64,000 nt of DNA from an uncultured delta proteobacterium (GTDB lineage: Bacteria > Desulfobacterota > RBG-13-43-22): positions 1-64,000 of the forward strand of contig CAVQFQ010000006.1 of assembly GCA_963711835.1 (NCBI GenBank), given 5' to 3'. Under the pieces are notes generated by a model. It saw only the letters and a list, made by a program, of their open reading frames with translations, did not search any database and had not been told where the DNA came from. Below are positions 49,747 to 59,304 of the stretch, one piece after another (position 1 is the first letter of the stretch; each line of letters begins with the position of its first letter). The position numbers and the translations under genes were made by a program.

Positions 49747-49943
49747 ATAAAGGTCCTCCTCTAAAGATAATGATTAAAAAAGATCGGACTTGTTTCAGTT
49801 GGTGAAGATCCCTGAAGCCCTTCGGTTTGAGATTCACGTAACTTTGGGACTATCTCAAATTTTTAGAGCGCCTTTTTGGGGAACCATTGTATAATAATTT
49901 CCATCATGGAGATACAAAAAAAAAGGTCTCTTCCTCTTCGGCC

Positions 49944-51575
49944 ATGAAACTGGTTCTCATCCAGCCGCCTATCCGGGACTTTTACGAGTCCTCCAGCCGC
50001 CTTCAGCCTATCGGGTTGGGCTATTTAAAGGCCGCCGTAAAGAAGCATCTCTCAGGGGTCGAGGTCCGCATTTTTGATTTCCATCAGGGTTGGGGACGAA
50101 GGACCACCCCGCTGCCCAATGAACTAAGCTATCTCCGGGACTATTACCCTTGGCCGGATCAGAGCCCTTTCGCTCTTTTTCATCAGTATTATCATTTTGG
50201 AGCTTCTTTCGAAAGAGTGGCCCGGGAAGTGGCCCGGGAAGAGCCCGACCTGGTGGGGATTTCTTCCCTCTTTTCTCCCTATTACCGTGAGGCCCTTCAG
50301 TGTGCCGACCTGATTAAGAAAGAGGTCGGATGCCCTATTGTGCTGGGGGGGTCTCATGTTTCTGCTGTGCCGGAACTTATGTTGAAGCAGCCCAGTGTGG
50401 ATTGGGTGATTCTGGGAGAAGGCGAAAGACCTCTGGTGGAGCTCCTTAAGGCCTGGAAAGAAGGCCGGACCCTGGAGGAAGTCCCCAACCTGGGATTTAA
50501 GAAAGAGGGCCGCCTGATTTTCAACCCGGTCGGGGAACCCTATGCCATCGATGAAATCCCTTTTCCCGATTTGTCCGATCTCGACGGCAGGAAGTATCTG
50601 TTTGAGAAGAAGCCGTTATGTTTTGTAATGACCTCCAGGGGATGCCCCCACCAGTGTAGTTTTTGTTCGATACACCGGACCTTCCCCGGCTATCGCCGAC
50701 GTTCGACGGATTCTGTTCTGGAGGAAATAATTCACCGGGTTGAGGAAGGATTTCGAATTTTTGACTTCGAAGATGATAACCTCACCTTCGACCAAAATGA
50801 GATGAAAATCCTGTGCCGTAAACTGGATCACATGTTTCCAAAAGGAACGATTCGGTTTTTGGCCATGAACGGCATCTCCTACCAAAGTCTGGATTTGGAA
50901 CTCCTGACGCTGATGAGGAAAGCAGGGTTTACCCACCTTAATATCGCCCTGGTGAGCGCCGATTCCTCCATAAGAAGAGGCTGCAACAGGTCCGGTGATT
51001 TGGGAAAATACCTTCGCGTTGTTCAGGAGGCGACCTCATTGGGATTTAAAATGGTCTCTTATCAAATCCTGGGGCTTCCGGGAGAAAGCCTGAAGGCCAT
51101 GATCAAGACCCTGGTATGGCAGACCCGGCTGCCGGTCTTGTTGGGGGCTTCGCCCTTTTATCTCTCTCCTGAGACCCCGATTGCCAAACAATTTCCGGAA
51201 ATGACCGATGAGGATTTACTTAAATCCCGGCTCACGGCCATGGCCGTTGAAACGGATCAGTTCGAGCGGGAGGATATTTACACCCTTTTTGTGACCATTC
51301 GAATCATCAATTTCCTGAAGGGGCTCTCTGTCCCAAAGGCTCGGATCACGCTTGAAGAAGCCCTGAGGAATGCTTATAAGAAAGGGAAACGGGCTGCCCA
51401 AGGAGCGGAACTCCTTAACCTTCTTCTATCCCAAGGCGTCCTGTATGCGGCGACTTCACAAGGGTTTAAACGGTTATCAAGATTTAAAGCGAAACTGTTT
51501 CAGGAGGTCTGGGGAAAGCTGGGGGTTATCCGGACCTTGGAGGGAAAGATCATACTAATACAAGGGCAAAACTAA
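49944..51575 (+). CDS. Cobalamin-binding radical SAM protein
   Basis: PIGLGYL, PDLVGISS, GGSHVS, GEGE, TSRGCPHQCSFC, FEDDNL. Confidence 0.9.
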   Translation: MKLVLIQPPIRDFYESSSRLQPIGLGYLKAAVKKHLSGVEVRIFDFHQGWGRRTTPLPNELSYLRDYYPWPDQSPFALFHQYYHFGASFERVAREVAREEPDLVGISSLFSPYYREALQCADLIKKEVGCPIVLGGSHVSAVPELMLKQPSVDWVILGEGERPLVELLKAWKEGRTLEEVPNLGFKKEGRLIFNPVGEPYAIDEIPFPDLSDLDGRKYLFEKKPLCFVMTSRGCPHQCSFCSIHRTFPGYRRRSTDSVLEEIIHRVEEGFRIFDFEDDNLTFDQNEMKILCRKLDHMFPKGTIRFLAMNGISYQSLDLELLTLMRKAGFTHLNIALVSADSSIRRGCNRSGDLGKYLRVVQEATSLGFKMVSYQILGLPGESLKAMIKTLVWQTRLPVLLGASPFYLSPETPIAKQFPEMTDEDLLKSRLTAMAVETDQFEREDIYTLFVTIRIINFLKGLSVPKARITLEEALRNAYKKGKRAAQGAELLNLLLSQGVLYAATSQGFKRLSRFKAKLFQEVWGKLGVIRTLEGKIILIQGQN

Positions 51576-51604: not shown

Positions 51605-52369
51605 ATGAATACAACCTTCAGTTTAAGACGAACCGTAGGATTAGTTGTTCTGTTTAATTTGGTGTTGGCCGGGAACCTCATGGCCCAGGGACAGACCTTG
51701 AATATTTACGGTCCGGGCGGCCCCTTGGGACCGATGAAGGAAGCGGCTGAGATTTTTTCGAAATCTCAAGGGGTCCAGGTAGTAGTGACGGCCGGGCCTG
51801 AAGCTAACTGGATTGGTCAGGCCAGGCAGGATGCCGACCTAATTTTTGGCGGCGCGGAATATATGCTCTCCCAGACCATGCTCGCTAATCCGGGTTTGTT
51901 GGACGAAAAAACACGGGTGAGCCTTTATATCCGGGCGGCTGGTATGCTGGTCCGGAAGGGGAATCCCAAACAGATCAAATTCCTGGCGGATTTGACCAGG
52001 GAGGGGATCAGGATCATTGATGTCAATGGGGCCGGACAACTGGGCCTGTGGGAGGACTTGGCCGGAGTCAAAGGACTGATCCCCGGCATCCAGAAAAATA
52101 TCGCCCTGTCCGTGCCCAACAGCGCCATCGCCATAGAGAAATGGAAAACCATTCCGGAGATAGATGCCTGGATCACCTACGAATCGTGGCACTATCGCTT
52201 AAGGGACATAACGGACCTGGTTCAACTGCCTGAAAAGGAAAAGCTCTATCGGGGGACCCCTATTGCCATTACTACGGTTTCAAAAAATAAAGCCCTGGCC
52301 CGGCAATTTATTGATTTTCTAAAAACCGATCAGGCCCATCAGGTTTTTCAGAAATGGGGCTGGAAGTAG
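51605..52369 (+). CDS. AcfC/PEB3-like extracellular anion-binding protein
   Basis: Signal peptide, YGPGGP, VRKGNPK, NGAGQ.GLWED. Confidence 0.75.
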   Translation: MNTTFSLRRTVGLVVLFNLVLAGNLMAQGQTLNIYGPGGPLGPMKEAAEIFSKSQGVQVVVTAGPEANWIGQARQDADLIFGGAEYMLSQTMLANPGLLDEKTRVSLYIRAAGMLVRKGNPKQIKFLADLTREGIRIIDVNGAGQLGLWEDLAGVKGLIPGIQKNIALSVPNSAIAIEKWKTIPEIDAWITYESWHYRLRDITDLVQLPEKEKLYRGTPIAITTVSKNKALARQFIDFLKTDQAHQVFQKWGWK

Positions 52370-52476
52370 ACCCAGCGTAGTCAAAGAATACTGTTTTCAC
52401 CCTATTTATTTCGTTGAACTTTTCAGGTATTATGGTTGCGGATAATGTGACCGTAGAAGGGAGGTGAAAAAACAGG

Positions 52477-52599
52477 ATGAAAAGAAAAATGTCCCCTGAG
52501 TTGTTGGCTAAGGAGGCGGCCTACTGGGAAAAGATGAAAAAGGCAATGAAAGAAATTCCTGGTAAGGTATGCCACAAGTGAAAGGGCTGAAAATCCTAA
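52477..52599 (+). CDS. Putative selenocysteine-containing peptide MKRKMSPELLAKEAAYWEKMKKAMKEIPGKVCHK-U-KG-U-KS (candidate RiPP precursor)
   Basis: SD GGAGGTGA upstream of ATG 52477; TGC-CAC-AAG-TGA-AAG-GGC-TGA-AAA-TCC-TAA; SECIS-like hairpin downstream; radical SAM/SPASM gene follows. Confidence 0.7.
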
Positions 52600-52601
52600 A
52601 C

Positions 52602-52618
52602 GTTGCTGGGACAGCAAC
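52602..52618 (+). promoter_or_regulatory. Candidate bacterial SECIS hairpin
   Basis: GTTGCTG-GGA-CAGCAAC, perfect 7-bp stem with G-led loop, starting 11 nt after the second TGA. Confidence 0.6.
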
Positions 52619-52627
52619 CAAACCATT

Positions 52628-52688
52628 TGGCGGATAGGCGCCGGCCGATTGATGAAAAAAGGGAACCGCGCGCTTGTCCGCCATTTTT
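52628..52688 (+). terminator. Long stem followed by a T run after the peptide gene
   Basis: TGGCGGATAGGCGC pairs with GCGCTTGTCCGCCA (two G-U pairs), then TTTTT. Confidence 0.55.
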
Positions 52689-52781
52689 ATCACAGGTCCT
52701 ATTTTAATTGATCCTTTGTATTGTTCAACTTTCCTATTATTAATAAGAGCAAGAACCAGTTTACATTTTAGAAGCTGTTTA

Positions 52782-52958
52782 TCACCGCCCACTCGTCACG
52801 CCCCGGCGTGACTCGCTCAAGGCGCAGAGATCGCTAAGAGCACAATTTTTCATTTGCCTGTGAGAGGCAGGCAAATGAAAAGAGCTCATTTTGCTTTCCG
52901 CCTTCGCAGCGGAAAGCAAAAAATGTTCTTCTTCGCGTCTTTTGCGTCTTTGCGGTGA
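52782..52958. repeat. MITE-like nested palindromic element
   Basis: TCACCGC/GCGGTGA ends; internal inverted repeats at 52847-52881 (14 bp) and 52889-52919 (12 bp); GTCACGCC-GGCGTGAC palindrome. Confidence 0.6.
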
Positions 52959-53019
52959 ATGTAAACATTGATTCGCTCTGATTAGTATTAACCTTAATCA
53001 AAGGCCTTTTCATTTCTCT

Positions 53020-54060
53020 ATGCTGACTCAAAGCACTTTCGATTTTTTTATCCAATGGCACCTGACCGAACGCTGCAACCTCCGCTGCCGGCATTGTTAC
53101 CAGGAGGGTTACGGCGGAGAGGAACTGCCCCTGATCGAAATCGTTCGAACTATTCAGGACCTGGCTGAAATGATTGACGACTGGTCCGATACCTACGAAA
53201 TTGCTTTCCAGCGCAGTTTCAATGTCACCGGCGGCGAACCCCTTTTAAGGGCGGATTTGTTCGAGATCCTGGAGATTATGGGAGACCACGGGTTTGATCT
53301 CTATCTCCTGACCAACGGAATTTTAATCGACTCTTTGAAGGCCGAGCGGTTGGCGGCCCTCCGGATCAAGGGGGTTCAGGTCAGCCTGGAGGGCCCTGAG
53401 GAAATCCATGATAAAATACGGGGGATGGGCAGCTTCCGGTCTTCCATGAAAGGTCTGGGACACCTTGTGGCTGCCGAAGTACCCGTTACCCTAAACCTGA
53501 CCCTCTCCCGGCTTAATGGGGAATTTGTGAGCCAAATGATAGAGGTGGCAAAATCAGCCGGGGCTGGACGGCTTGGATTTTCCAGACTGGTTCCTTCCGG
53601 CAAGGGGTTGGGGCTGTTACCCGAGATGTTAGGTGGGAAAGAAGTAGAAGCGATCTATGCTCAGGTCCTGTCGCAAAAACCGGAAGGGCTTGAGATCGTA
53701 ACCGGAGATCCGCTGGCTTCCCAGATGTCTTTTAGCCCTTTTCAGGAGGATTTGGGAGATATTCCCCTGGGCGGGTGCGCGGCGGGCGTCTCCGGACTCA
53801 CCATTCTTGCCGACGGTACGGTAACGCCCTGTCGCAGGCTGCCTCTCCCGATTGGAAATGTCCGGAAAGATTCATTAAGGGAATTATGGATTGCTTCTCC
53901 GATTCTTGGAAAGCTCCGGGATAAATCCGGTTACCAGGGGAAATGCGGTCGCTGCCCAAGGTGGGCCGGTTGCCGGGGCTGCCGGGCCATTGCCTATGCC
54001 TATTCCCAGGCCCAGGGCCGGCCCGATTTTCTGGCCGAAGACCCGCAGTGCTTTTTATGA
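53020..54060 (+). CDS. Radical SAM/SPASM domain protein (candidate peptide maturase)
   Basis: QWHLTERCNLRCRHCY, TGGEP, LTNG, QVSLEG; SPASM CAAG..DG.V.PC...KCGRC...CRGCRA...DPQC. Confidence 0.92.
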   Translation: MLTQSTFDFFIQWHLTERCNLRCRHCYQEGYGGEELPLIEIVRTIQDLAEMIDDWSDTYEIAFQRSFNVTGGEPLLRADLFEILEIMGDHGFDLYLLTNGILIDSLKAERLAALRIKGVQVSLEGPEEIHDKIRGMGSFRSSMKGLGHLVAAEVPVTLNLTLSRLNGEFVSQMIEVAKSAGAGRLGFSRLVPSGKGLGLLPEMLGGKEVEAIYAQVLSQKPEGLEIVTGDPLASQMSFSPFQEDLGDIPLGGCAAGVSGLTILADGTVTPCRRLPLPIGNVRKDSLRELWIASPILGKLRDKSGYQGKCGRCPRWAGCRGCRAIAYAYSQAQGRPDFLAEDPQCFL

Positions 54061-54139
54061 AGAGGCCTACGGCCCAGGGTTCAAGGTGCAAGGTGAAGGG
54101 CTTCAAAAAAGTCCAGGGTCTAGCAGGAATAGAATTCGG

Positions 54140-54581
54140 CCCCTTGAATCCTTGACCCCTCGGACCCTTTCTTTACCAGAGCCGGATAACTTTCTTTCCT
54201 TCCCTCATCTCTCCCCTGATTTTTTCCATATGCCTCAGGGCAGCCATTTCCCTTTCCAGGTCGGAAGGTTTGATTTGAAGCCTTTCGACGATCAGGGGAA
54301 ATTCAACCCCGCCCGTTTCTTCCAGATATTTCAAAATCTTTTCCTGGATCGGATTGAGGTTGACCCCGACGGTTTGTTGTTGAAAGGACTTGGCACTATG
54401 AACCGCCCAGGGATCGCACCCCTTGGCCGGCGACAGGGTGTCCATATAACAATCTTCGCACAAGGTCCGTCCGGCATGTCCCTTTCTTCACCCGGTGTAA
54501 TTTTATCGCCGCATCTTTGGCAAGTCATCCTTAAAACCTCCTGCTCTCGTTCACATTACCCCTTGAATCCTTGACCCCTCG
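54140..54581. repeat. 23-bp direct repeat CCCCTTGAATCCTTGACCCCTCG at 54140-54162 and 54559-54581
   Basis: Exact copies, each just past a minus-strand stop codon; related octamer-type runs near 63732-63760. Confidence 0.75.
54173..54528 (-). CDS. Small zinc-finger plus HTH hypothetical protein (one frameshift)
   Basis: MTCQRCG...[frameshift ~54480]...LCEDCYMD...CDPWAVHSAK...LEREMAALRHME; SD GGAGG. Confidence 0.7.
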
Positions 54582-58464: not shown

Positions 58465-58488
58465 ATGAAATTGACAAGATCCCCAACT

Positions 58489-58866
58489 ATGAAAATCAAG
58501 CCAATAAAATCAGAAGCCGATTACGAGGCTGCACTAAATGAGATTGAACGGCTGTTTGAAGCGAAGCCCGGGACGGCTGAGGCAGATCGTCTTGAGGTTT
58601 TGACGACGCTCGTTGAGGCCTATGAGGAGAACCATTACGCGATTCCCCTCCCAGATCCCATTGAGGCCATTCAGTATCATATGGAAAGTCGTGGTCTCTC
58701 TCGCCGCGATTTGGAACGCTTCATTGGAGGTCGTGCGCGTGTTTCCGAAATCTTGAATCGGAAGCGCCCACTCACTATGGAAATGATTCGAAACCTTCCT
58801 GGTGGTTTGGGTATTTCAGCAGAAGTGTTGATTCAGCCCTATAGGACACTTAAGGACGCGGCCTAA
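58489..58866 (+). CDS. higA: HigA-type antitoxin (HTH)
   Basis: IKPIKSEADYEAAL, LVEAYE, PDPIEAI, RVSEILNRKRPL; no higB upstream. Confidence 0.85.
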   Translation: MKIKPIKSEADYEAALNEIERLFEAKPGTAEADRLEVLTTLVEAYEENHYAIPLPDPIEAIQYHMESRGLSRRDLERFIGGRARVSEILNRKRPLTMEMIRNLPGGLGISAEVLIQPYRTLKDAA

Positions 58867-58881
58867 CCAAGAAATGTATTT

Positions 58882-59091
58882 ATGAAAGTACGTGATATTA
58901 TAAAGATGCTTGAGGAAGATGGGTGGTACCGGGTGAAGGCTAAGGGGGGCCATCGGCAGTACAAGCATCCCACCAGGTATGGGCGGGTGACGATTTCGGG
59001 AAAGCCTGGTGATGATCTGGCACCCGGCACATTGAACAGCATCTTCAAGCAGGCCGGCTTTGTAGCTAAAGATATAAAGGAGGTGCATTGA
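58882..59091 (+). CDS. hicA: HicA toxin
   Basis: LEEDGW...KGGHRQYKHP...VTI...GTLNSI. Confidence 0.9.
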   Translation: MKVRDIIKMLEEDGWYRVKAKGGHRQYKHPTRYGRVTISGKPGDDLAPGTLNSIFKQAGFVAKDIKEVH

Positions 59092-59304
59092 ATGAAACGT
59101 TTTCTTGTGATCATCGAGAAGGCAGCGCGCAACTACTCTGCTTATTCCCCTGACCTTCCCGGGTGCATTGCTACGGGCAGAACGAAAGACCAAGCTGCAA
59201 GGAATATGCACAAAGCAATTGAAATACACTTGGAAGGTCTTAGGGAAGACGGGATTCCAATCCCAAGATCCCATTCTTCAGCAGAGTATGTTGCAGTGAC
59301 TTGA
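59092..59304 (+). CDS. hicB: HicB antitoxin
   Basis: YSAYSPDLPGCIATG.T...AIEIHLEGL..DG.PIP. Confidence 0.9.
   Translation: MKRFLVIIEKAARNYSAYSPDLPGCIATGRTKDQAARNMHKAIEIHLEGLREDGIPIPRSHSSAEYVAVT

Follow-up and report, generated by a model that had tools for sequence, protein, structure and literature searches.

A two-gene locus in a Desulfobacterota genome with a short peptide gene predicted to encode two selenocysteines and a neighbouring radical SAM/SPASM enzyme

A stretch of 64,000 nucleotides (nt) from the genome of an uncultured delta proteobacterium of the Desulfobacterota (assembly GCA_963711835.1, contig CAVQFQ010000006.1, positions 1 to 64,000), in the following called the window, contains a short gene which is predicted to encode a peptide with two selenocysteines (Sec), followed by a gene for a radical S-adenosylmethionine (SAM) enzyme. 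The peptide gene (52477..52599, + strand) has a Shine-Dalgarno (SD) site, read from the sequence as GGAGGTGA (52460..52467, + strand), and consists of 40 codons if TGA is read as Sec. It starts with ATG at 52477 and encodes a basic, leader-like part, in which E13 and W17 are invariant, and the core C32-H-K-U35-K-G-U38-K-S. The sole Cys, residue 32, is encoded by TGC at 52570-72. Two TGA codons, TGA1 (52579..52581, + strand; predicted Sec35) and TGA2 (52588..52590, + strand; predicted Sec38), follow three and six codons later, and the frame is closed by TAA at 52597-99. Directly 3' of this stop lies a hairpin of the bacterial selenocysteine insertion sequence (SECIS) type with a six-pair stem and a G-rich loop (52602..52618, + strand). 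The next gene on the + strand (53020..54060) encodes an enzyme of 346 aa with a radical SAM domain (PF04055) and a SPASM domain (PF13186). Apart from the hairpin, which was not mentioned there, this arrangement from the SD site to the enzyme gene on the same strand had been described in a first-pass annotation of the DNA and was borne out in each detail. The two genes are 420 nt apart because a long stem-loop with a T run, terminator- or stabiliser-like (52628..52688, + strand), and a palindromic genome-wide repeat (about 52770..52990) lie between them. The repeat stands outside the system; BLAST gives 25 further pieces of it, located on 10 other contigs, and a contig of a relative (run X3) lacks 294 nt there. 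In the host genome of 3.9 Mb, 13 SD-led starts yield a short open reading frame (ORF) ending in C-x-x-TGA, but a second TGA and a stop follow only in the ORF at 52477.

For identification of related loci, species-representative genomes were scanned for the enzyme. This revealed 73 enzyme-bearing loci, 56 of them with at least 42% identity over most of the length. The peptide gene is located upstream of the enzyme gene in 55 of the 56 (53 detected by motif, plus L009 and L010), as had been expected for orthologous radical SAM genes; in the 56th genome (G011) peptide and hairpin are found on another contig. A GGAG, GAGG or GGAA site together with an in-frame start is present in 51 of 56 peptide genes examined. 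Since the first motif required Lys after each Sec site, the codon tally was repeated with a profile restricted to the 34 residues preceding TGA1. With this profile the gene was found in 122 of 131 loci, representing 110 distinct genes. The nine loci without it are six enzyme-only or outgroup stretches, L016, a fragment at a contig end and L047, which stayed below the threshold. The genomes behind the 110 genes are related and the counts given below are not independent events.

Codon 35 is TGA in 109 of the 110 genes and TGC in the remaining one (L162), and neither TAA nor TAG occurs there. At codon 38 TGA is likewise found in 109 genes, with TAA in one (L034). The true stop of the peptide, in contrast, varies freely between TAA (45), TGA (34) and TAG (31). 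Conservation continues beyond both sites: K39 is present in all genes, encoded by AAG (69) or AAA (41), and K36 in 106. The third-position entropy of codons 36 and 39 is 0.74 and 0.95, compared with 0-0.13 at positions 1-2, and peptide positions 34 and 36 are occupied exclusively by Lys, Ser or Asn. Of the characteristics of a selenoprotein family listed in section 5 of Haft and Gwadz (bioRxiv 10.1101/2022.07.06.499078), at least 10 examples, TGA rather than another stop at the Sec site and protein-like conservation across it are found in these 110 genes. Both TGA codons thus behave as Sec codons, as first proposed, and together with the conserved hairpin described below this makes it very probable that the gene encodes a peptide with Sec at both UGA codons. 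The nucleotide 3' of both UGA codons is A throughout the 110 genes, even where Ser or Asn occupies position 36; it is variable after terminal TGA stops.

Cys versions of the peptide are rare. In L162, which carries TGC at codon 35, TGA38, the hairpin and the enzyme are all kept; it was obtained in a search directed at Cys variants and is not a random draw. That metagenome pattern scan was no census, and among the matches listed (121 loci, mostly noise) L162 was the one true member. The protein P0120, related to L162, also has Cys at position 35 and terminates with C-x-x after this second Cys. A Cys at position 38 was found neither among the 110 genes nor among the protein database hits. The expected alignment of TGA with TGC or TGT at both sites was therefore seen at position 35 only, in the two related sequences, and not at position 38. 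In L034 (L034:3948-3980) the second Sec codon is replaced by TAA with the hairpin kept; it is either a truncated or a one-Sec member.

Protein databases hold the peptide only in its cut form. All 75 hits end at C-x-x, and the same holds for 97 of 103 new representatives, P0120 included. The others are five unrelated long proteins and one sequence with TGA misread as Trp; the latter, P0077, appeared to read through the core and was rejected. Gene callers end the frame at the first UGA and thereby conceal the family. Searches with 33 peptide members against Pfam and NCBIfam gave no family better than E 0.004. In the ESM Atlas no match above 0.78 was obtained for the peptide, and the enzyme was found only in generic radical SAM clusters.

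The hairpin in the window begins 11 nt 3' of TGA2, TGA2 lies 17 nt and TGA1 26 nt from its loop, and its energy is -8.5 kcal/mol. Bacterial SECIS models describe a loop of 3-9 nt with G in the first two places, located 16-37 nt after the UGA, and an energy of at most -7.5 kcal/mol (PMC13188914; for the distance also PMC10778597). The window hairpin lies within these limits for its energy and for its distance from both UGA codons; a few homolog hairpins reach merely -6.7 to -7.3 kcal/mol. A stem-and-G-loop test was passed by all 110 genes, compared with a mean of 7.05 and a maximum of 14 in 100 shuffles and with 3 in an upstream control. Covariation was analyzed for those 31 of the 48 distinct hairpins which have a five-base loop. 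With a structure derived from these same sequences, 98.9% of the cells pair and five of the six pairs show double changes, a result approached by none of 500 shuffles and by no slid structure. Taken alone, the window hairpin has no unusual stability (z -0.11 and -0.65 for stretches of 62-63 nt), and its weight comes from conservation across the family and not from its own stability. The hairpin of L007 has 14 consecutive bases in common with the hairpin which follows the Sec codon in E. coli fdhF. An fdh gene of the host has a similar element, with a stem 11 nt after its TGA and the loop GGTCT in a motif look-up. No Rfam family was found at the hairpin, all 14 matches being below the gathering score. 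Table 1 of PMC13188914 includes bacterial UxxU proteins, so that two closely spaced Sec residues have precedent. For one SECIS serving two UGA codons, no bacterial test surfaced in our literature search.

The machinery for Sec incorporation, required by the first-pass annotation, was found completely in the host genome. It comprises tRNA-Sec (selC), SelA, SelB and SelD, the proteins all above their family cut-offs and SelD with a TGA of its own. Another 50 hosts, covering 50 of 57 loci given, were tested for SelA, which was over the cut-off in 40. SelB was detected in six of the ten remaining and a Sec-type SelD in two of the last four, giving at least one marker in 48 of 50. A tRNA-Sec search of four genomes gave nothing over the cut-off. 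In one cassette genome (G023:C10:284363-285600) selA is split into three pieces, with stops, next to a partial match to selB, which might be due to assembly error or decay.

Peptide and enzyme occur together. Of 401 genomes of the phylum of the host, 28 contain the peptide, and exactly these 28 also contain the enzyme (E at most 1e-70). Among 171 Nitrospirota genomes, 35 contain the peptide, 36 a close enzyme and 34 both; G596 has its peptide at a contig end and in G556 the enzyme is broken. This corresponds to about 7% of the Desulfobacterota-phylum genomes and 20% of the Nitrospirota genomes sampled. Nearly all hits show one peptide copy per genome. No third gene is widely shared near the cassette in the neighbourhood comparison. 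In two genomes (G011 and G564) both genes are located on separate contigs, away from contig ends, with the SECIS kept, which suggests that the product acts in trans. The peptide is probably the substrate of the neighbouring enzyme, as judged from these sequence comparisons. In L275 (G570:C39) the two genes are about 1.3 kb apart with a transposase-like ORF between them. On viral contigs no close enzyme was found (best 33% identity, partial), and none close on plasmids. In two studies the gene is covered by contigs from RNA libraries of relatives; the word shares are small and the libraries may hold DNA, so expression is not shown by them.

Two layouts of the cassette can be distinguished. In the spaced layout, to which the window belongs, all 29 loci folded show a long hairpin (-22 to -42 kcal/mol) with a T run behind the SECIS, and the enzyme start has no clear SD site. 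In the overlapping layout, represented by 31 distinct genes and found mostly in Syntrophales, the first codons of the enzyme gene contain the SECIS. In seven of these genes an ATG overlaps the stop codon of the peptide; of the remaining 24, 23 show GTG or TTG overlapping the second UGA, compared with start-type triplets at this place in 23 of 79 genes of the spaced subtype. For the overlapping subtype (L035-L060, L261) a selenium-dependent translational coupling is possible from this arrangement. The distance from W17 to the Cys differs by three residues between the two subtypes.

The enzyme has a CxxxCxxC motif (residues 19, 23 and 26) and seven SPASM Cys (253, 271, 309, 312, 318, 321 and 344), all invariant in 48 aligned homologs. 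The spacing of the seven Cys equals that given for CteB, PapB and Tte1186, in which auxiliary cluster I is bound by three Cys and binds the substrate Se, and for which selenoethers on synthetic Sec peptides are described (PMC10177961; PMC10452713). No PqqD hit, which would indicate a RiPP recognition element (RRE; RiPP, a peptide made by the ribosome and modified after translation), was found in the enzyme, whose CxxxCxxC starts already at residue 19, and the sole PqqD gene of the host is located on another contig. Apart from generic radical SAM/SPASM, neither peptide nor enzyme reaches the cut-off of a family in NCBIfam or Pfam. By profile, the closest solved structures are SkfB, CteB (5wgg), anSME and PqqE. 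A quick tree of 38 rows, 21 of them from the 48 family members, places the family, SbtM and the enzymes linked to TIGR04222 each on one side of a branch, with support of 88, 100 and 92. The TIGR04222-linked enzymes are the nearest outgroup seen (38-40% identity), and in two that were translated the preceding proteins have CSGC-rich tails.

The system most similar in outline is SbtA/SbtM (TIGR04081/TIGR04082). Both consist of a small peptide with at least two Sec beside a radical SAM/SPASM enzyme with a QWH motif in the catalytic domain, and both occur in Desulfobacterota. By its sequence, however, the new cassette falls outside that family. The SbtA leader and SGUG motif are not present in the new peptide, which has C-x-x-U-x-x-U instead. 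SbtM has about 500 aa and eight SPASM Cys, whereas the new enzyme lacks its N-terminal part of about 200 residues, has seven invariant Cys and reaches 137 bits against TIGR04082 (cut-off 350). None of the 33 peptide members matches TIGR04081, and the SCIFF motif is also absent, in agreement with the first-pass view that the peptide matches neither the SbtA nor the SCIFF precursors. A survey for SbtM revealed 13 genes in 12 of 201 genomes, and the precursors beside five of them have another leader and SGUG. Both systems occur in G211 and G241. In G211 an SbtM gene lies 4.4 kb from the cassette on the other strand with unrelated genes between, which looks incidental. The SbtA-like precursors in L282, L285 and L292 carry two or three SGUG motifs across about 80-90 codons, each of which would need its own recoding signal.

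Ranthipeptide/SCIFF maturases (CteB, Tte1186, PapB) share with the new enzyme the seven-Cys SPASM and possibly the three ligands of cluster I, and PapB and Tte1186 make selenoethers on synthetic Sec peptides (PMC10177961). The new system differs in having no RRE, no six-Cys or CX3D motif and no acidic acceptor, and in that Sec would be natural in place of Cys. Against the PapB model it reaches 57 bits (cut-off 340), and it stays likewise below the cut-offs of SkfB, StsB and AlbA. ACGX enzymes (TIGR04340) and the TIGR04222-linked enzymes are also of the QWH type, have about 340-350 aa and no RRE and are encoded next to a Cys-rich sequence. The new enzyme scores 147 bits against ACGX (cut-off 400), the ACGX repeats are missing and the group is separate in the quick tree. 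The peptide profile found nothing in three TIGR04222-linked genomes (G561, G541, G524). AhbD and NirJ (TIGR04545, TIGR04055) are the highest-scoring models, and several sources label homologs as 'AdoMet-dependent heme synthase'. The scores of 170 and 147 bits are far from the cut-off of 500, heme genes are not among the conserved neighbours, and AhbD of M. barkeri has eight SPASM Cys (PMC10452713). The bacterial UxxU selenoproteins (NF041115, the FmdB family TIGR02605 and Prx-like proteins) also have two Sec three codons apart; the peptide has no similarity to their models, and none is listed with a radical SAM maturase in Table 1 of PMC13188914.

In the three TIGR04222-linked loci (L270-L272) the radical SAM/SPASM enzyme, below every NCBIfam cut-off listed, directly follows a TIGR04222 membrane protein with a Gly/Ser/Cys-rich (CSGC) C-terminal tail. 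By their gene order these are a candidate protein-modifying system.

From these data the following mechanism can be proposed. SelB bound to the hairpin would, with high probability, deliver Sec at both UGA codons, and failure would lead to products of 34 or 37 residues without the full core. The peptide would then probably bind the enzyme as substrate, with the part around E13 and W17 as recognition element, which is proposed because the enzyme has no RRE. More tentatively, a selenolate may bind the open iron of auxiliary cluster I (invariant Cys 253, 271 and 321), and the 5'-deoxyadenosyl radical may abstract H from a core residue, so that an Se-C bond is formed with a loss of 2 Da each; these two steps are conceivable rather than likely. 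Acceptor candidates would be positions 34, 36 and 39, the sole core positions limited to Lys, Ser or Asn, and both C32 to K36 and U35 to K39 would be i to i+4 links. The product would stay in the cell as a redox-active or metal-binding seleno-peptide, since exporter and protease are not conserved. The intergenic hairpin and the weak enzyme start would keep the peptide in excess. The reading as a whole, a two-Sec precursor with one shared hairpin and enzyme-made selenoether or thioether rings to unactivated carbons of nearby residues, has in our view slightly less than an even chance of being correct.

Several observations weigh against it. PapB requires a carboxylate acceptor (PMC10739248), and the peptide core has neither Asp nor Glu, so that any rings would close on Lys, Ser or Asn carbons or on alpha carbons. 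In 13 of the 48 enzymes a Cys located 6-8 residues before Cys253 could close cluster I (35 have none), an extra Cys193 is present in 20, and by sequence cluster I may also have a non-Cys fourth ligand. The best family models, all far below cut-off, are AhbD, ACGX, NirJ2, GeoRSP and SbtM (137-170 bits). These scores are well above that of PapB, and ranthipeptide maturases are not indicated by sequence kinship. No RRE, protease, or transporter/exporter gene is conserved near the cassette, and in G474 an intact enzyme was found without a peptide. Sec machinery was not found in the incomplete genomes G027, G028 and G433. Moreover, SelA is present in 25 of 28 cassette genomes and in 377 of 401 genomes of the phylum overall, so its co-occurrence is consistent but not discriminating.

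Among the alternatives, chemistry like that of SbtM or anSME on the same substrate would start with H taken from the beta carbon of Sec or Cys and yield seleno-oxazoles, selenoaldehydes or dehydroalanine. A Sec peptide is converted by SbtM to thio(seleno)oxazoles (PMC9204691), both enzymes have a QWH-x-T motif in front of CxxxCxxC, the SbtM model is matched over positions 199-515 and no acceptor side chain would be required. We consider this route unlikely, since an eighth SPASM Cys, located five residues ahead of the first Cys of cluster I, is present in each of the 13 SbtM sequences and at this spacing in none of the 48 family enzymes, the Gly-Sec motif is missing at position 35 and SbtM forms a long separate branch in the quick tree.

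The peptide may instead be a partner of the enzyme and not its modified product, with C-x-x-U-x-x-U as ligand of an Fe-S cluster or metal or as donor of selenium or electrons to an enzyme acting on another substrate. CxxCxxC is the usual cluster-binding spacing, as in ferredoxins. The strict one-to-one co-occurrence suits a subunit as well as a substrate, and the single peptide copy and the missing protease, exporter and RRE fit this model too. Its probability is also low: no other conserved gene could supply a substrate, the terminator-like hairpin and the weak enzyme start suggest unequal amounts and not 1:1, and a plain cluster ligand would be expected to swap Sec for Cys more often.

A main role of the ORF as a selenium-sensing leader peptide, in which stalling or read-through at the two UGA codons sets enzyme expression in cis, is improbable. 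The terminator-like hairpin after the SECIS and the GTG or TTG starts across the second UGA of the overlapping subtype speak for such a function. However, both genes and the SECIS persist when separated, the distance between W17 and Cys shifts between the subtypes, unlike in ribosome-arrest motifs, and the invariant C32 and the swap of Cys for Sec suggest chemistry of the side chains. The ORF may have a regulatory role in addition. That TGA1 is the true stop of a 34-residue product, with the downstream conservation as an RNA element, is very improbable: the ends of all database proteins, which merely reflect gene calling, and the second use of the region as enzyme start in one subtype are outweighed by codon 35 never being TAA or TAG while the real stop uses all three, by the third-position variation in codons 36 and 39, by the SECIS-type hairpin and by TGC in L162.

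If the two-Sec precursor with enzyme-made rings is correct, it would bear on the known range of Sec peptides. The 2026 inventory of 119 prokaryotic selenoprotein families gives, in the sections examined, a single Sec-containing RiPP precursor, TIGR04081, and its Table 1 has no C-x-x-U-x-x-U entry (PMC13188914). Full-text searches, with supplements and most subscription journals outside their coverage, found no literature naming the family. On sequence grounds it would be a second, uncatalogued Sec precursor family unrelated to TIGR04081, with its own enzyme clade. Selenoethers by such enzymes have so far been made on synthetic substrates (PMC10177961), and the peptide family would supply natural Sec. 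That Cys versions are almost missing suggests a requirement for selenium itself, and what Se does that S cannot becomes a testable question with a 40-mer and one enzyme. The locus also offers a natural case for the question whether one bacterial SECIS serves two UGA codons. Rather speculatively, the cassette might represent a natural 'seleno-ranthi/sacti' class: the first RiPP with rings from encoded Sec, with one SECIS in the 3' untranslated region for both UGA codons, a two-gene cassette, a caged Se core that would serve inside the cell as a new redox cofactor or a store of selenium, and an enzyme start which in one clade lies on the second Sec codon and would tie synthesis to selenium supply.

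Some further features of the window were noted. Upstream of the peptide gene lies a gene for a B12-binding radical SAM protein (49887-51575, + strand). It is next to the peptide in seven of 128 loci (six close relatives, 62-66% identity), amid ordinary synteny and not in other lineages, and could encode a lineage-specific tailoring methylase or reflect plain synteny. Between this gene and the peptide a solute-binding protein of the SBP_bac_11 type is encoded (51605-52369, + strand), with no homolog in the 128 related loci. A second family of palindromic intergenic repeats, like that at 52770-52990 similar to miniature inverted-repeat transposable elements or repetitive extragenic palindromic sequences, is located at 54070-54200 and has seven BLAST pieces in the genome, compared with 26 for the former. 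At 58465-59304 (+ strand) there are small ORFs which, judged from their translations, resemble HigA-type and HicA/HicB toxin-antitoxin genes.

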